Of a DNA stretch of 64,000 bases, positions 18,106-63,192 are shown piece by piece. The position numbers and the translations under genes were made by a program. Below the pieces are notes generated by a model. It worked only from the letters and a program-made list of their open reading frames with translations. It had not been told where the DNA came from and made no database searches. Position 1 is the first letter of the stretch; the number at the start of each line of letters is the position of its first letter. The stretch covers positions 3,173-67,172 of the forward strand of contig JANJTX010000151.1 in assembly GCA_024710875.1 (NCBI GenBank), in the 5' to 3' direction. The stretch is from Anaerolineales bacterium (GTDB lineage: Bacteria > Chloroflexota > Anaerolineae > Anaerolineales > UBA11579).

Positions 18106-19116
18106 TTAGAACTGGGGCAGGTTGCGCTGCAAGAGCTTATAGAGGTCCTGGGCGCGGCAGGCGCCCTCGGCCACGCAGGTCAGCGGGTTATCCACCAGGT
18201 AGGTAGGTACGCCCAGTTTCTGGGTCATCAATTTTTCCATGCCGCGCAGCAATGCGCCGCCACCGCACAGGGCAATGCCGCGGTCAATGATGTCGCTGGC
18301 CAGTTCCGGGGGCGTTTTTTCCAGCACCCGGCGCACGGTTTCAAAGATCTGGTCGAGGGTGTCTTCCACGGCTTCTACAATCTCGCCGGTAGTTAGCGTG
18401 AGGGGTTTGGGCAGGCCGCTCACCTGATCCTGGCCCTGAATGTCAATGCTCAATTCCTGGTCCTGCGGTACGGCGGCCCCGATGCGGATTTTCACCTGTT
18501 CAGCCGTGGGCAGGCCGATAATCAGCCCGTATTTGCGACGCACATAGGTCACAATCGCTTCGTCCAAATCCAGCCCACCGAGGCGCAGGGTTTCAGCAGA
18601 GACGATGTCATGCATGGCGATGACCGCCGCTTGCGAGCAGCCGCCGCCCAGTAGCACAATCATGTTGCCCGAGGGGGTGCCAATCGGCAAGTCCACGCCG
18701 AGGGCCGCGGCCAGGGGTTGAGGGATTAACTGGGCATCACCCACATCCAGGGCGGCTTCATGCACCGCCCGCCGCTCAACGCTGGTGATGCCGTACGGGT
18801 GGGTGATCATTATTTTGGGACGCAGTTTAATGAAGCCAAACCCGCCGCCAATCCGTTCCAGCAACTGGCTGAGCAAAATCTGGGTGTACTCGTAGTAGGC
18901 TACTACGCCATGCCGCAAGACTCGCGTTACCTGGATATGGTCTTCGTCCACCCGGCCAAGCATGTTCTGGGCGGCGCGGCCAATTTCCACCATTTTTTGG
19001 GCTTCGAGGTCTACCGCCACAATGCTGGGTTCTTCGAGGATGACTGCGCCTGCTTCGGCAATGCGCGTGAACATCGTCCCCAGATCAATCCCCAGCTCTT
19101 TTGAAAAAATACCCAT
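18106..19116 (-). CDS. mreB: Rod shape-determining protein MreB
   Basis: The actin-like ATPase motifs GIDLGT and LCGGGALLRG are present in a 336-aa protein. Confidence 0.95.
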   Translation of the reverse strand: MGIFSKELGIDLGTMFTRIAEAGAVILEEPSIVAVDLEAQKMVEIGRAAQNMLGRVDEDHIQVTRVLRHGVVAYYEYTQILLSQLLERIGGGFGFIKLRPKIMITHPYGITSVERRAVHEAALDVGDAQLIPQPLAAALGVDLPIGTPSGNMIVLLGGGCSQAAVIAMHDIVSAETLRLGGLDLDEAIVTYVRRKYGLIIGLPTAEQVKIRIGAAVPQDQELSIDIQGQDQVSGLPKPLTLTTGEIVEAVEDTLDQIFETVRRVLEKTPPELASDIIDRGIALCGGGALLRGMEKLMTQKLGVPTYLVDNPLTCVAEGACRAQDLYKLLQRNLPQF

Positions 19117-35758: not shown

Positions 35759-36859
35759 ATGCCCGCCCAACTTCCGCTGGACCAGATACTGCAAGGCGAT
35801 TGCATCCAGACGCTGGCCGATTTACCGGCTGAAAGCGTGGACCTCGTCTTTGCTGACCCACCCTATAACCTTCAACTCCAAAACGACCTCTACCGCCCCA
35901 ACCGCACCAAGGTCAGCGCGGTGGACGATGCCTGGGACCAGTTCGCCGACTTTGCCGCCTACGACGACTTCACCCGCGCCTGGCTGGCAGCCTGCCGCCG
36001 GGTGCTCAAACCCAGCGGGGCGTTGTGGGTCATCGGCACTTATCACAACATCCACCGCATTGGCGCGCTGTTGCAGGACCTCGACTTCTGGCTATTGAAC
36101 TCGATTGTGTGGGTCAAAACCAACCCCATGCCGAATTTTCGCGGGGTGCGCTTTACCAACGCCCATGAAACCCTGCTGTGGGCGCAAAAAGAGCGCGGCG
36201 CGCCCTACACGTTTCACCACCACGCCATGAAGGGGCTGAATGACGACAAGCAGATGCGCAGCGATTGGGAAATCCCACTGTGCAGCGGAGCCGAGCGCAT
36301 CAAAATCAACGGCGAACGCGCCCACTCAACCCAGAAACCGGAAGCCCTGCTCTACCGGGTGATTCTCGCCAGCACCCACCCGGGCGATGTGATTCTGGAC
36401 CCGTTTTTTGGCAGCGGTACAACCGGCGCAGTCGCCAAAAAACTGCGCCGCCATTGGATTGGCATAGAACGCGACCCGGCCTATATCGAAGTCGCCCGGG
36501 CGCGCATCGCCGCCATCCCGACCCCCACAACAGCAGACACCCTGTTTGCCACGCCCAACCCGCGCAAACTGCCGCGCCTGCCCTTTGGCCGCCTGCTGGA
36601 AGCCGGGCTGCTGCAACCCGGCCAGAAACTCTTCCTTAGAAAATCTGGAGAGATTTTTGCGCAGGTACGCGCCGACGGGTTGCTGGAGTACAATCAGCAG
36701 CGCGCCTCGATTCACGCTCTGGCACGCGACCTCGCCAACGGCCCGGCCAATGGCTGGGAAGTCTGGCACTACGAGCAGGACGGCCAGCGTTACCCGATTG
36801 ACCGCCTGCGCCAGCAGTTGCGCCAGCAGGATTCTGAAATCAAAAACTCTATTTCATAA
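35759..36859 (+). CDS. Beta-class N6-adenine DNA methyltransferase, CcrM-like, no adjacent endonuclease
   Basis: Motif IV (FADPPYN) precedes motif I (DPFFGSGTTGAVA). The length of about 366 aa includes a C-terminal extension (RLPFGRLLEAGLL...) as in CcrM-type enzymes. Confidence 0.85.
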   Translation: MPAQLPLDQILQGDCIQTLADLPAESVDLVFADPPYNLQLQNDLYRPNRTKVSAVDDAWDQFADFAAYDDFTRAWLAACRRVLKPSGALWVIGTYHNIHRIGALLQDLDFWLLNSIVWVKTNPMPNFRGVRFTNAHETLLWAQKERGAPYTFHHHAMKGLNDDKQMRSDWEIPLCSGAERIKINGERAHSTQKPEALLYRVILASTHPGDVILDPFFGSGTTGAVAKKLRRHWIGIERDPAYIEVARARIAAIPTPTTADTLFATPNPRKLPRLPFGRLLEAGLLQPGQKLFLRKSGEIFAQVRADGLLEYNQQRASIHALARDLANGPANGWEVWHYEQDGQRYPIDRLRQQLRQQDSEIKNSIS

Positions 36860-41343: not shown

Positions 41344-41982
41344 ATGTACATCGCTGTCGAAGGGGTCATTGGCGTGGGCAAAACCAGCCTGGCGCGTTTG
41401 CTCCAGCCGCGTTTTGAAGCCGACCTGCAACTGGAGGTCTTTGAGGAGAACCCGTTTCTGGCCGATTTTTACAGCGACCGCCAGCGTTATGCCTTCCAGA
41501 CCCAGATTTTCTTTTTGCTGAGCCGTTACCACCAGCAACGCCGCTCGGTGCGGGAAGTGCTGGATACCGGCCGCAACCTCTTCACCGACTATACCTTTGC
41601 TAAGGATGCGCTGTTCGCCCAGATTAACCTGGCGGGCGACGAACTGGAAATGTATTACAAGGTCCATGAAGCCCTCGGCGAAAAAGTGCGCCTGCCCGAC
41701 CTGATTGTGTACCTGCGGGCCGAGACCGAGACCCTGATGCAACGGATTGCCCTGCGCGACCGGGCCTACGAGCGCAATATGGAAAGCGACTACATCGCCC
41801 GGCTCAACCAGGCCTATGACGACCACTACGGCCCCGGCTACCAGGGCCCGCCGGTGCTGATTATCAATTCCAATGGCCTGGATTTTGTGAAAAACCCGGC
41901 CGACCTGGACAAGATTGAAGCGGACGTGCGCGCCGCTCTGGAAAACGCCCCTCACCAGCCCGAGCTGCCGCTGAACGGCTAA
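41344..41982 (+). CDS. Deoxynucleoside kinase
   Basis: The P-loop EGVIGVGKTSLA is present, together with F.ENPFL, an FQTQIFFL-type substrate site and an LRDRAYE motif. Confidence 0.85.
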   Translation: MYIAVEGVIGVGKTSLARLLQPRFEADLQLEVFEENPFLADFYSDRQRYAFQTQIFFLLSRYHQQRRSVREVLDTGRNLFTDYTFAKDALFAQINLAGDELEMYYKVHEALGEKVRLPDLIVYLRAETETLMQRIALRDRAYERNMESDYIARLNQAYDDHYGPGYQGPPVLIINSNGLDFVKNPADLDKIEADVRAALENAPHQPELPLNG

Positions 41983-41986
41983 CCTG

Positions 41987-42994
41987 ATGCGAATTACCCG
42001 CGACTTACTGCTGAAAATTGCCAACGAAACCGTGACCGAACGCGCCCGGGCGGATAAATCCATCCTCGCCGCTTACCTGCACGGCAGTTTGCTGGAAGGC
42101 CGCGAACCGCTGCTGGGCGGGGCGGCCGATATTGACCTGAGCTTCGTGCACATCGGGGCCGATGCGCCGCGCGAAATCGTGCGCCTGACGGATGACGTCA
42201 CGCTGGATATCCTGCACCATGAACGCGCCGCCTACGAACCCGCCCGCACCCTGCGCCAGCATTCCTGGCTGGGGCCGGCGGTGTTCTACGCCAAAGCCCT
42301 GTACGACCCGCAGCACTTTCTGGATTTCACCCAGGCCAGCGCCCGCGGCATGTACGACGAGCCGGAGAATGTACTGGCGCGCGCCGAGCCGCTGCTGCAA
42401 ACCGCCCGCCAGACCTGGTTCCAGTTTTACAACCAGCAACTCACGGATGACACCGCCCGGGTGCGCGGCTTTCTGCTGGCGGTGGAAGCGGCCGCCAACG
42501 CCGCCGCCAGCCTGACCGGCCAGCCCCTGCCCACCCGCCGCCTGCTGCTGGAGTTCCCGGCCCGCGCCGCGGCCCTCGGCCAGCCGGGGCTGGCGGCCGG
42601 CCTGCTGGGCCTGCTGGGGGCACGTGACCTCACACCGGCGCAGGTAACCGCCTGGCTGCCGGACTGGCAAAGCGCCTACACCGAAGCCGCCACCAGCGGC
42701 CAGACCGAGCCGGACCTGCACCCCCTGCGCCGCAGGTATTACCAGCAGGCGATTCTCTCACTGGCCGAAGGCGGCTACCCGCAGGAAGCCGCCTGGCCGC
42801 TGCTGCGCACCTGGGCCGGGGCCGCCGCCGGGCTGCTGCCCGCCAGCCCGCCCCACCAGCGCTGGCTGGACGCGATGAGCGAACTGGGCCTGGCCGGGCC
42901 AGCATTGGAAGACCGCCTGGCCGGGCTGGATGCCTACCTGGATACGCTGGAAGAATTGTTTGACAGCTGGAAAAAAGAACGCGGCGTGGGGTAA
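41987..42994 (+). CDS. Hypothetical protein with minimal nucleotidyltransferase (Pol-beta-fold) motif
   Basis: LHGSLLEGREPLLGGAADIDLSFV fits G-S-x(n)-D-x-D. The rest of the protein is helical. It starts 4 nt after the dNK stop. Confidence 0.5.
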   Translation: MRITRDLLLKIANETVTERARADKSILAAYLHGSLLEGREPLLGGAADIDLSFVHIGADAPREIVRLTDDVTLDILHHERAAYEPARTLRQHSWLGPAVFYAKALYDPQHFLDFTQASARGMYDEPENVLARAEPLLQTARQTWFQFYNQQLTDDTARVRGFLLAVEAAANAAASLTGQPLPTRRLLLEFPARAAALGQPGLAAGLLGLLGARDLTPAQVTAWLPDWQSAYTEAATSGQTEPDLHPLRRRYYQQAILSLAEGGYPQEAAWPLLRTWAGAAAGLLPASPPHQRWLDAMSELGLAGPALEDRLAGLDAYLDTLEELFDSWKKERGVG

Positions 42995-43004
42995 TGCCCC
43001 GCTC

Positions 43005-43388
43005 TTAAATATTGCTCTTTTCTACCTGATGTAATACCCACCACTCTCTTTGATCAGTTACGGACTGAAACAAAATCGCCTCATTCCCAGGATAATCGCC
43101 TTCCAGCGGAAGCACCAATGTCGTTTCAACTCCAAATTCAAGCAATATCTCATTGTTTTCAAAGCTTACACTCGTCACTTCTTTGGGAATAAGATCTATG
43201 AGCGCTAGCTTAAACGCATCCGAAGGGAAGGTTATCTCCTTTTGCCCCGCCTTCCTGATTATTGGATCAGTGGTTACGTTTATACGGAACTCTTCAATAT
43301 TCAACTGGAGATAATCCATCACAAAGGTGACCGATTCAAGTCGCTTCGCAATTAATTTCTCGAGGCTGGTAAGTTCAACTCTTTTCAT
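43005..43388 (-). CDS. Hypothetical 127-aa protein in an AT-rich islet (immunity-protein-like composition)
   Basis: The GC content is markedly lower than in the flanking sequence. The protein is small, acidic and beta-rich, with a VMDYLQLNIEEF segment of the D-Y-[ILV]-x-L-x-F type that I associate with small orphan immunity-like proteins. This association was not verified. Confidence 0.45.
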   Translation of the reverse strand: MKRVELTSLEKLIAKRLESVTFVMDYLQLNIEEFRINVTTDPIIRKAGQKEITFPSDAFKLALIDLIPKEVTSVSFENNEILLEFGVETTLVLPLEGDYPGNEAILFQSVTDQREWWVLHQVEKSNI

Positions 43389-43538
43389 TGGATAGCCTAT
43401 GATGTTAACAGTTACATGATTATGTGAACCAAGAGATTGGTCGGAAAAATTATCTGACTACCTATCATCTTGATGTGGGGTAACAGCCTTCAATAGAACT
43501 CCTCCCCATCGCTTGTTCTGTTAAGAATTCTTGGGCTG

Positions 43539-60142: not shown

Positions 60143-60625
60143 CTAAGTTGGCAAATCCTCCATCAGCACTCCAAACAGCTGGGGCGGCTGGTGGCCGAGC
60201 CAGGTCAGGTAATTGGCCAACTGACTGCGGTGGTGGACTTCATGTTCCACCGTTGCCAGCAGGTAGCGCCAGCCACTGGCGGCATGGCCGGTCTGCCCGA
60301 CCCGTTTTTCGGCCAGCACGCTTTCCGGCTGGCCTTTAAGGAGTGCGACCCCTTCGGCGTGGCAGGCATCCAGGTAGGCCGTGGCGGCCGCCAGATCCGC
60401 CCCCAACTCTGGCGCGTGTCCGGGGTATTTCAGTCGCTCGCCCGCCACCAGCCGCCAATTCATCAATTGCACACTGCCCAGATGCCGGACGATGTCGCTG
60501 CAGGTGTATTCGCCCGGCGCTGGCGACCAATCCGCCAGGGTGGGTGGCACAGCCTCTATGAACAGGTGCGTGCGTTTGCGGACGCCCTCAAAATAGGCCA
60601 GGTAATCAGCCAGACGGGTAATCAT
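60143..60625 (-). CDS. DinB family protein
   Basis: This is a 160-aa helical bundle with conserved His residues (IVRHLG..., HEVHHRSQL). Confidence 0.75.
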   Translation of the reverse strand: MITRLADYLAYFEGVRKRTHLFIEAVPPTLADWSPAPGEYTCSDIVRHLGSVQLMNWRLVAGERLKYPGHAPELGADLAAATAYLDACHAEGVALLKGQPESVLAEKRVGQTGHAASGWRYLLATVEHEVHHRSQLANYLTWLGHQPPQLFGVLMEDLPT

Positions 60626-61674
60626 TTCGCCAGCAACCGGCGCAGCACCACCGTGCGCTCACCGATCATATTGCCATAGGTTTGGGCCTGCCCGGCCCCG
60701 TTATACATCGTGGCAAAGGCCACAAAATCCTCATTGCGCAGGGCGGGCAGGCCGCGGTTGTACGGGTCATTTTCAATGAATTTGAACATCGCCAGCAATT
60801 GATGCCGGGCGCCGTGCTCGCGGTCATTGAAGGCGGCAAACATGTCATTCACATGGGCATAACCCACTCGTTTGAAGTTACTGCCGAGAATCTGCGGGGC
60901 GCCCATGCTGATGGACATACGCGCCGCGGCAGTGTGGAACCCGCTGGCGAATTCCAGCACCGCCCACTCTTTGAGCTGGTCGCCATGAAACGGCCGCCAT
61001 TCCTCGGTCGTGGCGGTACGGTAAAGATGGTCCTTCCAGCGCTGGGTGGCATTGAATTTGAAGTGCTGGTCGTATTTGGCTTTGTTCTGTTTGCCCCAGT
61101 AGTCAAAAAACAGATGGTTTTCAAAACGGATAATCATGCGGTTGTTGGGGCCAAAGGCCGCCCCGCCCGATTCTACGGATACCACCGCCGCCAGGATGGC
61201 CGGGTCAATGCCATATTTTGGAGCCAGGGCGGTCAACAGCCCACCGTAACGGTTCCAGGTCTGGGCGACCTGCTTTTCCACCGCCGTGGCCGTATCGGTC
61301 AGTTGCTTGGCCGCCTCCAGCGGTGCGCTTTCCGGGGCATCCGCAGGCAGGGTCGGGGGCTTTTGCACCGGCGGGGCGCTGGCTTCCTGCTTCACGACCT
61401 GCTGTACTTCGGCGGGCGGCGGGCCGCTCGGCACGCTGTTGGCTTCGGTGGCTAAATCCGGCGTAGCGCTGGCCCGGCCGCGCGGTGGTTGGATCGCCCG
61501 GTACGAGATAAAGCCCCGGGCATTGTTGGCGGCTTCCACCAGCAGCCAGGTCTTCTGTAGGTCAAGTACCAGCACAGTCAACCCGGCCGGCAATTGGCCC
61601 AGCACCTTGCTCTGGGAATTGGGTTGCTCATATAGAGGGGTGGTCTGATACAGGCGGCGGGAATAAACGGGCAT
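60622..61674 (-). CDS. N-acetylmuramidase-family (DUF3380-like) peptidoglycan hydrolase with N-terminal SH3-like domain and Pro-rich linker
   Basis: The C-terminal domain AILAAVVSVESGGAAFGPNNRMIIRFENHLF...GAPQILGSNF matches the pattern I recall for PF11860-type muramidases. The N-terminal about 60 aa are SH3b-like. Confidence 0.7.
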   Translation of the reverse strand: MPVYSRRLYQTTPLYEQPNSQSKVLGQLPAGLTVLVLDLQKTWLLVEAANNARGFISYRAIQPPRGRASATPDLATEANSVPSGPPPAEVQQVVKQEASAPPVQKPPTLPADAPESAPLEAAKQLTDTATAVEKQVAQTWNRYGGLLTALAPKYGIDPAILAAVVSVESGGAAFGPNNRMIIRFENHLFFDYWGKQNKAKYDQHFKFNATQRWKDHLYRTATTEEWRPFHGDQLKEWAVLEFASGFHTAAARMSISMGAPQILGSNFKRVGYAHVNDMFAAFNDREHGARHQLLAMFKFIENDPYNRGLPALRNEDFVAFATMYNGAGQAQTYGNMIGERTVVLRRLLAK

Positions 61675-61740
61675 GAATACCTCACTTGCAAGTGAATAAG
61701 GACTGCTTTATTGTAGGAGGGCGAATGCCGCGTGTCAATT

Positions 61741-61815
61741 GCTTTGCTGATTGTAGTTCTTTAAAAGAGATTTCTCTTTATGTCTTGTGGAAAGTAAAGT
61801 TAATTAGTAGTACCA
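61741..61815. other. AT-rich tract (candidate DNA-unwinding element)
   Basis: TTTGCTGATTGTAGTTCTTTAAAAGAGATTTCTCTTTATGTCTTGTGGAAAGTAAAGTTAATTAGTAGTA is conspicuously AT-rich in a GC-rich genome. Confidence 0.4.
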
Positions 61816-61821
61816 GTAGGG

Positions 61822-61830
61822 GCTGGGGAT
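61822..61830 (-). promoter_or_regulatory. DnaA box, 1 mismatch
   Basis: TGGGGATAA is the reverse complement of TTATCCCCA. The consensus is TTATCCACA. Confidence 0.5.
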
Positions 61831-62090
61831 AAGTGGAGAACCCGTTTGAGCTGGTTGCTTTGTGCCATATTTACCGCACTCGCTCTGCGGCTGCCTGCAT
61901 CTGGCGGCTGGGTGGGGCAGTTTCCTCCCCAGCCGCCCTGTGCATGAAACGCGCATAACATTTGCCGCTCGCCGCTGCCTGATTGCCCTTTTAGAAAATA
62001 TGGGGCTCTTAATCACCCACCCCCCATATATAGGGGCGGGGCGTACCGGTCTGAACCAGACTAATCGGGGGGTTTTCCCCAGTTATGCCT

Positions 62091-62120
62091 GTTTATCCAC
62101 ACAATATCCGCACTTATCCA
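62091..62120 (+). promoter_or_regulatory. Two perfect DnaA boxes flanking a degenerate one
   Basis: TTATCCACA occurs at 62091-62099 and again at 62112-62120. ATATCCGCA lies between them. All three are in the same orientation. Confidence 0.65.
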
Positions 62121-62184
62121 CACACCTGCCCGCAAAACTTGCAGAATTGTCAGGCTAAATAGCGGATGAGCGGTTTTTGAGGGC

Positions 62185-62213
62185 TTGACAAACGTTTTTG
62201 GTTAGACTACAAT
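62185..62213 (+). promoter_or_regulatory. Sigma-70-type promoter for the 62278 gene
   Basis: TTGACA, a 17-nt spacer, then TACAAT. It is followed by a TGTCT-N5-AGACA inverted repeat in the leader. Confidence 0.6.
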
Positions 62214-62277
62214 CTTTGTTAGATGATTGTCTAATAAAGACAGCAACCTAACAGATTTGGCCTGACGGAGATACACC

Positions 62278-63192
62278 ATGCTCAATACACTGTCCTGGAG
62301 CCACCAGCTCGCAACCCATATTCTGGAAGACCTGGCCGCAGTCATGCGCCCGGCCATTCAGCAGGTGCTGCACACCTTTGGCCAGCCCGAAGCCACCGAT
62401 GTCTTCCTCGCCCAGTATGCCGTCGGGTTTGACCCTGAACCGCTCGGTCTGGCCCATATTTTCAAACGCTCCCCGTACCATAACCCGGAGCAATTCCAGT
62501 CTGACTTCAAAGCCGCTGTCTCCCGCGGCTGGCTGGCCGAGCGCACCCCCGGCGCATACGGCCCAACGCCTTCGGCGCAAGCCTTCGTGGCCGATCTCCA
62601 ACACGCCACCGCCCAGCGCCTTGCAGCACTGGCCCCGCAACCGGAAAACGAACTGAATCACCTGATTGATTTGCTGGGGCGCGTAACCACCGCCGCCCTT
62701 GAACTGCCGGACCTGGCCGAAACGCCCGCCCTGCGGATGAGCCGCCGCTTCAATCAGCCCGGCCAGCCGGCCATGCTGCGTTTGCGCCGCGCCCTGATTG
62801 ACCTGCTTTCCTTCCGCGACGATGCCCATGTGGCCGCCTGGGTGCAATATGAAATTGATGGCTACGCCTGGGAAGCCTTCACCCTGCTCTGGCGGGGTAC
62901 GGCCTGCACCCCGGAAGACCTGGCCGAAACCCTCGCCGCCCGCGCCTACACCGCCGCCGATTATGCCGCCGCCCTCGCCCGACTGGCCGAGCGCGGCTGG
63001 GTGAGCGCAACCGCTACCGGCTACGAAGTCACCCCGGAAGGCGGCCAGCTGCGCCAGGCGGTCGAAGACCTCACCGACCAGTATTACAACGCCGCCTTCG
63101 CTACGCTGACCACTGCTGAACTTGAAGTCCTTCACCAGCGCCTTACCTCCCTGGCCCAGGCGCTGCCCCTCGCCGTACCCGACCCGGCCTGA
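62278..63192 (+). CDS. Hypothetical protein with two MarR-like winged-helix half-repeats (pseudo-dimer)
   Basis: Two similar segments end ...SRGWLAERTPGAYGPTPSAQAFV and ...ERGWVSATATGYEVTPEGGQLRQAV. The composition is natural, whereas the overlapping 366-aa minus-strand ORF is Gly/Arg-rich antisense noise. Confidence 0.6.
   Translation: MLNTLSWSHQLATHILEDLAAVMRPAIQQVLHTFGQPEATDVFLAQYAVGFDPEPLGLAHIFKRSPYHNPEQFQSDFKAAVSRGWLAERTPGAYGPTPSAQAFVADLQHATAQRLAALAPQPENELNHLIDLLGRVTTAALELPDLAETPALRMSRRFNQPGQPAMLRLRRALIDLLSFRDDAHVAAWVQYEIDGYAWEAFTLLWRGTACTPEDLAETLAARAYTAADYAAALARLAERGWVSATATGYEVTPEGGQLRQAVEDLTDQYYNAAFATLTTAELEVLHQRLTSLAQALPLAVPDPA

Follow-up and report, generated by a model that had tools for sequence, protein, structure and literature searches.

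The window, which is the whole 64-kb stretch of DNA analyzed here, contains a gap of about 600 bp (61675-62277) that is bounded by a muramidase gene on the minus strand and a HTH_67 gene on the plus strand. The left neighbor (60622-61674) encodes a protein of 350 aa with SH3 and N-acetylmuramidase domains (PF11860, 3.9e-34; PF08239), and the right neighbor (62278-63192) encodes a winged-helix protein of 304 aa (PF21863, 5e-19) for which orthologs with 57-93 % identity were found. The transcription of both genes points away from the module that is described below. The synteny of the muramidase gene is kept in the loci L002, L004, L005 and L006, and a metagenome protein scan with the muramidase as first query gave no matches. 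An earlier note on this DNA had called the gap the longest intergenic stretch in the window. This is plausible, and the next apparent gap (42995-43538) holds an ORF of 127 aa. Going by the source names of its relatives, the organism is an uncultured member of the Anaerolineae (Chloroflexota). Conservation was assessed with an alignment of seven orthologous sequences from six loci (A1), all of which have the muramidase and HTH_67 context and encode HTH_67 proteins that are 57-73 % identical to that of the window.

Two identical sigma-70-type promoters, TTGACA-17-TACAAT, flank the module on both sides and fire outward. The promoter of the HTH_67 gene, found by a promoter scan (62185-62213, plus strand), had already been recognized 65 bp downstream of the DnaA boxes; it is present and conserved, although the spacing to the second perfect box is 62 bp. 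Its CTTGACA and TTAGACTACAATCT are invariant in the seven orthologous sequences. The promoter of the muramidase gene (61710-61738, minus strand, 11/12 matches) is the mirror image of the right one and was absent from the earlier note. It adjoins the AT-rich tract, fires outward from it and is kept in L002, L004 and L006 in A1. The -10 element and the leader start of the HTH_67 promoter are covered by an inverted repeat on the plus strand (TTAGACTACAATCT / AGATGATTGTCTAA, 62202-62234), of which TTAGAC, TTAGA and TCTAATA.AGAC are invariant in A1. Judged by its sequence, this repeat is probably the operator of the HTH_67 regulator and lies outside the origin proposed below. The Rfam searches, with the gathering threshold on the window and as an E-value scan of the gap, gave no credible match, no tRNA or tmRNA genes were found, and a terminator scan detected none within the gap. 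As the scans for Rfam families, tRNAs and tmRNAs were empty, a non-coding RNA gene in the gap is unsupported.

The gap is rich in DnaA boxes. With up to two mismatches, nine boxes were counted, compared to 1.2 expected (Poisson p ~5e-6), which is the maximum for any 600-bp segment across the 64 kb. Two of them are perfect TTATCCACA boxes on the plus strand (62093-62101 and 62114-62122), spaced 21 bp start to start, and the 64 kb contains no perfect DnaA box besides these two. Both boxes and their spacing had been reported correctly, while their coordinates (62091 and 62112) were about 2 bp too low. The degenerate box that had been described between them is ATATCCGCA at 62104-62112. A similar shift affects the weaker boxes: the one-mismatch box TTATCCCCA on the minus strand exists, but at 61824-61832 and not at 61822-61830, and the two-mismatch boxes TGTGGAAAG and TTTTCCCCA, formerly placed at 61784 and 62071, are located at 61786-61794 and 62073-62081. 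The left boxes share one orientation, and the right boxes all have the opposite one. According to the box scan, the right array (62073-62122, plus strand) consists of TTTTCCCCA at 62073, TTATCCACA at 62093, ATATCCGCA at 62104 and TTATCCACA at 62114. It follows the unwinding module on the right at a distance of about 250 bp and is helically phased, with strong boxes every 20-21 bp and weak ones between them. With two perfect and additional phased weaker boxes, it provides an extra cluster on which the initiator could oligomerize. The seven orthologous sequences show no difference in the motif GTTnTCCCCA or in the two perfect boxes.

The middle region (61903-61947) was characterized by repeat and box scans and contains a GC-rich inverted repeat as well as the degenerate boxes TCCTCCCCA (61923-61931) and TGTGCATGA (61939-61947). 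A class-wide consensus was derived from an alignment of 34 module sequences, and for this region it consists of a convergent box pair, TTATCCCCAGCC...GGCTGGGGATAA. The GC-rich hairpin that had been pointed out before is present (GGCGGCTGGG, 61903-61912; CCCAGCCGCC, 61928-61937), but it is not conserved in the orthologs. The repeat at 61903-61937 overlaps the degenerate box pair, and as the orthologs lack the hairpin, it was rejected as a functional element. The idea of counting GANTC sites with regard to a CcrM-like methylase found no basis, since the gap contains none; GATC sites are likewise missing from the gap. Between the middle region and the right array, a palindrome, CCCCATATATAGGG (consensus CCCCATATATGGGG), forms a candidate accessory site at 62022-62035, and its core is invariant in the seven orthologous sequences. 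The consensus palindrome was found in 27 of the 34 modules, compared to a background of only 0.013 per 455 bp, and in most cases its position relative to the unwinding module is +203 to +217.

On the plus strand, the left part of the gap contains an AT-rich tract, six DnaA-trios, a GGGC spacer and two abutting DnaA boxes in this order. This complete unwinding module was overlooked in the earlier note. The AT-rich tract, a putative DNA unwinding element (DUE), spans 61741-61804 and has an A+T content of 70 % versus a window mean of 38 %. For the slightly longer tract at 61741-61815, which had been singled out as AT-rich, the content is 69 %, which bears out that observation for a window with 62 % G+C. 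Duplex stability was calculated as nearest-neighbor energy in 64-bp segments over the 64 kb, and the least stable segment of all is 61749-61812, with -72.2 compared to a mean of -99.8 and a standard deviation of 6.5 kcal/mol. The trios, read from the sequence as six consecutive NAN, are AAT TAG TAG TAC CAG TAG (61802-61819, plus strand). The trio TAG corresponds to 3'-GAT-5', and its count was given as four of six, with three visible in the string listed here. The spacer GGGC (61820-61823, plus strand) connects the trios to the boxes and was identified in the sequence, the ortholog alignment and the metagenome loci. The tandem abutting boxes (61824-61840, minus strand) comprise a proximal box, TGGGGATA(A), which as TGGGGATAA has one mismatch, and a distal box, AGTGGAGAA, with two mismatches. 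In relatives, the distal box reads TGTGGAnAA and has one or no mismatch.

This arrangement agrees with the basal unwinding system (BUS) of bacterial origins as described in PMC8287927 (Pelliciari 2021), which comprises tandem boxes, a GC-rich gap, at least three NAN trios with a preference for 3'-GAT-5', and then an AT-rich region. In the published origins covered there, the distance between the better box and the first trio peaks at 10-13 bp. The gap was searched for a DnaA box with up to two mismatches within 16 bp of at least three trios with a central A. Such a combination was found with six trios and a 12-bp spacer between the distal box and the first trio, and it is accompanied by the GC-rich spacer GGGC and by the AT-rich element at 61741-61804 past the trios. 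Written 3'-5' as in the tables of PMC8287927, the consensus of the module is AATAGGTGT-ATAGGGGT-CGGG-GATGATGAT.

These elements are conserved in related genomes, both in A1 and in about 34 non-redundant metagenome loci. In A1, no variation was seen in the trios, the spacer, the tandem boxes, both promoters or the palindrome CCCCCA.AT.T.GGGG, which also holds for the elements of the right array, while the sequence between the invariant blocks has diverged. The trio pattern TAG.A.T...GTAG is kept in register in all seven orthologous sequences, and the same applies to TGGGGATA.GTGGA.AAC for the tandem boxes. Since the AT-rich tract, the trios, the spacer and the tandem boxes are invariant over family-level divergence, selection appears to act on unwinding and not on the binding of boxes alone.

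To cover a broader range of genomes, metagenome contigs were scanned with a 26-nt core, GTAGGGNNTGGGGATANGTGGANAAC, which has 22 fixed bases. Matches were found in 46 contigs. In eight of them, the core lies between dnaA and dnaN; four of these are low-GC contigs of one kind and four are high-GC contigs of another. Most of the other 38 loci contain the whole module of about 350 bp beside unrelated genes. In most of these 38, the core is preceded by AT-rich DNA and by trios of the TAGTAGTAG type, and runs of this type stand at the trio position in most of the 46 contigs. The equivalent of the AT-rich tract has an A+T content of 57-79 % in nearly all modules that are not linked to dnaA. The neighboring genes are a deoxynucleoside kinase (dNK) and a protein of 335-351 aa without Pfam families at 11 loci, Peptidase_M1 and an ArsR-type HTH protein at six, and enoyl-CoA hydratase (ECH) and GlgC at five, with further gene pairs among the remaining loci. 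Whatever the neighboring genes are, most of these other modules have two to three perfect boxes with a spacing of 20-21 bp at +250 to +330, and this layout of the array is independent of the G+C content of the contig (44-67 %).

This recurrence bears on the suggestion that the boxes mainly form a regulatory region through which DnaA would control the muramidase gene and the HTH_67 operon from their divergent promoters. DnaA does act as a transcription factor, and the -35 element of a strong conserved promoter follows the perfect boxes at a distance of 62-92 bp. However, at 11 other loci, where the array keeps its distance from the unwinding module, the gene next to it is on the minus strand and turns its 3' end toward the array, so that there is no promoter at this place. 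The array is therefore better understood as a part of the module than as a promoter element. In addition, the operator-like repeat at 62202-62234 already explains the regulation of the HTH_67 promoter, and promoters have no use for trios or a DUE. The earlier proposal of a DnaA-controlled promoter is weakened accordingly, and a mainly regulatory role of the boxes is considered very unlikely.

The variety of gene pairs beside the module across lineages could also suggest that it is the replication origin of a mobile element, for instance of a plasmid or phage that has integrated. Three of the loci, L019, L037 and L045, point in the same direction, since the AT-rich tract is missing there and the surrounding ORFs are unusual and possibly of phage type. 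Against this, integrase, Rep and partition genes are not consistently linked to the module, its flanks are of the housekeeping type, and the module had no match among 2.9 million viral contigs and 72,556 plasmids. The skew flip in other lineages that is described below is a signal of chromosomal scale, which also argues against such an element. An origin of mobile descent is thus hardly credible.

The earlier statement that the window contains neither dnaA nor dnaN holds, as tblastn found no homolog of either gene. In the loci of the window's family, tblastn detected no dnaA, and the gene tables of L004-L008, L055 and L056 contain no DnaA or DnaN Pfam families. The adjacency to dnaA and dnaN, which is a common but not a defining feature of origins, is therefore not given at the window locus. 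The gene order around the module provides further information. In other lineages, an ArsR-type gene abuts the module, and its counterpart in the window's family (40-48 % identity) is retained on the right at +5.5 kb; for this reason, the five genes directly to the right of the module look inserted. Two lineages have an ortholog of the origin-adjacent dNK gene (88 % identity between lineages), one at -5 kb and the other at +16.5 kb, and in both it is oriented toward the module. These positions and orientations suggest an inversion that is symmetric about the module, which is the pattern left around an origin. At the rotamase locus of Longilinea arvoryzae, the single locus inspected in this species, no module was found within +/-10 kb.

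The raw skew of the flanks is misleading because the third positions of coding strands are rich in C and many loci have genes that converge on the module. Instead, the skew per gene was regressed on the side of the module and the gene orientation. For loci outside the window's family that are not linked to dnaA, the side effect was +0.045 +/- 0.008. Left of the module, plus-strand genes had a skew of -0.049 and minus-strand genes of -0.038, and on the right the values were +0.045 and +0.046, respectively. In these lineages, there is a clean flip from negative to positive at the module that is independent of gene orientation. The controls linked to dnaA showed the same polarity with a side effect of +0.124, and the low-GC dnaA-linked loci with sufficiently long flanks (L015, L039 and L051) had strong skew flips of +0.24 to +0.43.

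The window's family behaves differently. There is no sign change at the module, and for flanks within +/-10-12 kb the regression gave a side effect of 0.000 +/- 0.007 and a constant of -0.053. The plus strand is C-rich over the 62 kb left of the module (mean -0.047), as expected of a left replichore, but the right flank is C-rich too in every family member where it was usable. For five family members, negative skew extends over 10-14 kb to either side. The right flank is still negative at +11 kb in the closest relative, L001. At the locus L055 of the L005 lineage, it stays negative up to +10.5 kb, and at L056 of the L004 lineage up to about +14 kb. At L055 and L056, the later positive skew coincides with a switch to minus-strand genes. 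When flanks up to +18 kb are included, a side effect of +0.022 +/- 0.008 is obtained (third positions +0.039 +/- 0.016), which is half of that in other lineages. The skew check that the earlier note had named thus gave a divided result, with a flip in other lineages and none within 10-14 kb in the window's family. For the oriC reading, this means that the skew at loci not linked to dnaA backs it, but that origin activity in the window's own lineage is not confirmed by skew. The conflict is eased to some extent by the gene order, as the five genes next to the module on the right look inserted and the dNK positions fit inversions about an origin.

A possible reason could be that the module is derived from an oriC but is not the active primary origin in the window's lineage. 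Such a copy could be displaced, silent or secondary and be kept for regulation or to titrate DnaA. Alternatively, the origin could have been relocated recently, so that its right flank is not yet re-equilibrated. Besides the uniformly negative skew, the composition of this copy is consistent with such a role: the copy in the window's family has only three near-consensus boxes with up to one mismatch, compared to five to nine in most other modules, and its middle boxes are degenerate. The five apparently inserted genes to the right of the module fit as well. On the other hand, the invariance of the trios, the spacer, the tandem boxes and the AT-rich tract over family-level divergence speaks against such a copy, and so does the weak shift in the expected direction with flanks up to +18 kb. 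Furthermore, no second module was seen within the 64-kb window. Titration sites of the datA type and the DnaA-box clusters of Bacillus subtilis lack trios and a DUE, so that the accessory DnaA-titration site considered before is a weaker explanation for a locus with a conserved BUS and DUE. Taken as a whole, a non-primary or recently relocated copy is rather unlikely, although it would account for the skew. More speculative explanations for the single skew sign on both sides are very asymmetric or unidirectional replication, a relocated origin with a flank that has not re-equilibrated, or two origin modules of which that of the window is the accessory one; along the same line, the palindrome CCCCATATATGGGG, which recurs class-wide at a fixed distance in the module, might be the site of an undescribed origin-binding factor. 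These explanations are regarded as doubtful.

The most suitable interpretation of the gap is that it is the chromosomal replication origin (oriC) of an uncultured Anaerolineae (Chloroflexota) bacterium and is unlinked to dnaA, which we consider probable. The earlier description as an oriC-like element away from dnaA is supported by the conserved unwinding module, which is common to loci linked to dnaA and dnaN and to loci unlinked to dnaA. If the window's copy fires as an origin, DnaA would bind the phased right array (62073-62122) and the opposed tandem boxes at 61824-61840. From the tandem boxes, a DnaA filament would then extend over GGGC onto one strand of the trios (61802-61819). The adjacent AT-rich tract (61741-61804) would open, and the helicase would be loaded there. 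The outward promoters at the edges may leave negative supercoils between them and thereby aid the opening. Transcription of gidA is known to help opening at the oriC of E. coli.

The Anaerolineae are abundant, slow-growing and mostly uncultured bacteria, and to our knowledge their replication origins are uncharacterized. A literature search for oriC in Anaerolineae retrieved nothing specific. The module of about 350 bp with its 26-nt core could therefore serve as a sequence tag for the likely origin in metagenome-assembled genomes of this class. Such a tag could be used for the orientation of assemblies, for coverage-based growth rates (peak-to-trough ratio) and for shuttle vectors. Existing knowledge on the mechanism of bacterial origins and initiation is not changed by these results, and the oddities of note are the weak skew flip in the window's family and the conserved palindrome inside the module.

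For comparison within the class, a DoriC/Ori-Finder prediction for Anaerolinea thermophila UNI-1 (ORI94030346) is placed at the genome position ~420-460. Among the entries covered in the BUS survey (PMC8287927), A. thermophila was the sole one from the Anaerolineae. Its BUS is poor, since the trio score is low and the box AAAAGGGGT is combined with a spacer of 16 bp. The predicted origin shares the class with the window but does not resemble its module. A closer likeness exists to the BUS of other bacteria. Compared to those of B. subtilis and others, the tandem boxes, a 4-bp GC-rich spacer, the trios and the AT-rich tract occur in identical order and polarity. The BUS of B. subtilis was reportedly described by Richardson in 2016. 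Abutting boxes of 9 and 8 nt and a CGGG spacer (3'-5') are shared with Deinococcus maricopensis and Geobacter sulfurreducens, according to the entries in PMC8287927. In contrast to the published BUS, the module of the window is not located between dnaA and dnaN, its distal box has two mismatches, and its binding by DnaA and its unwinding are predicted.

The lack of linkage to dnaA is shared with the oriC of E. coli, which is located between gidA and mioC. There, the box R1 in TGTGGATAA orientation comes after the DUE, the strong box R4 at the other end has the opposite orientation, and the phased boxes between the two are weaker. As with R1, the trio strand of the window module has a box in TGTGGATAA orientation 3' of the trios, and in both loci the unwinding element lies on the outer side of one of two opposed box arrays. 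Both also have a flanking gene whose transcription leads away from the DUE and would thereby aid opening. The opposed boxes are about 250-290 bp apart in the window and about 190 bp apart in E. coli. Unlike the oriC of E. coli, the window locus has no GATC clusters, which argues against a control of the SeqA type, and its module contains the conserved palindrome. As a cluster of boxes away from dnaA, the locus is also similar to datA and DARS of E. coli and to the DnaA-box clusters of B. subtilis, but it differs from all of these in having conserved trios and an unwinding element.

The palindrome CCCCATATATGGGG lies inside the oriC-like module at positions 62022-62035 of the window, and it recurs at +203 to +217 relative to the unwinding module in the loci carrying it (L002-L052). 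It is present in 27 of the 34 aligned non-redundant modules, compared with 0.013 per 455 bp in the background, and weaker copies occur near +50 to +90 of the consensus module. The palindrome is a conserved component of the module. To our knowledge, there is no origin-factor site that fits it.

Invariant motifs were also found in the leader of the HTH_67 gene, the right neighbour of the origin gap. The motifs TTAGAC, TTAGAT, GTCTAA and CTAA(C/T), which overlap the -10 element, are present in the window (62202-62260) and in the orthologues, and they likely represent an autoregulatory operator of the HTH_67 protein. The operon headed by this gene further comprises an ORF of 50 aa together with two SRPBCC-PDZ-DinB genes.

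The earlier note had proposed counting GANTC sites in this region given a CcrM-like methylase nearby. This enzyme is probably the DNA methyltransferase at 35759-36859, an N6_N4_Mtase with a RAMA domain. Since the origin gap contains neither GANTC nor GATC sites (0 of either), origin control via methylation is not indicated.

The 26-nt core pattern of the module also matched three high-GC contigs (L019, L037 and L045) without the AT-rich tract, and the box array is missing as well from L037 and L045. In all three, the pattern is surrounded by unusual ORFs, which may be phage structural genes, and these matches may be chance or non-origin occurrences.

Several independent metagenome contigs stop inside or right beside the module. 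One (L001) begins 17 bp upstream of the HTH_67 gene, and three others (L003, L007 and L008) have their first base some 140 bp to the left of the unwinding module. Strain variation, a coverage change at the locus or chance could account for these ends.

At about 18400-19000 of the Longilinea arvoryzae locus L059 (DF967972.1, about 2.037 Mb), five tandem copies of one fragment (GGGTTCGAATCCCAT...CTCTCCGCC), which has a tRNA 3' part at its end, come after a tRNA gene. These copies look like repeated integration scars.

Within the window, a deoxynucleoside kinase (dNK) gene and a Pfam-less 335-aa gene lie directly side by side and co-oriented at 41344-42994. The pair is 19 kb to the left of the module, and no boxes separate the two genes. 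They are homologues of the gene pair flanking the module in 11 other loci, with identities of 33-36% (dNK) and 34-46% (335-aa protein), and the window dNK appears to be a paralogue of the dNK found next to the module. Immediately beyond the 335-aa gene, a 127-aa ORF on the minus strand (43005-43388), without a Pfam match, lies within a GC-poor island (51% versus 62% G+C) and may have been acquired horizontally. In two lineages of the window's own family, L005 (3846-4502) and L056 (16236-16892) carry orthologous dNK genes that are 88% identical and in both cases preceded by a PPDK_N gene. One orthologue is to the left of the module and the other to its right, and each points toward it, an arrangement suggestive of an inversion with the module as its centre of symmetry.
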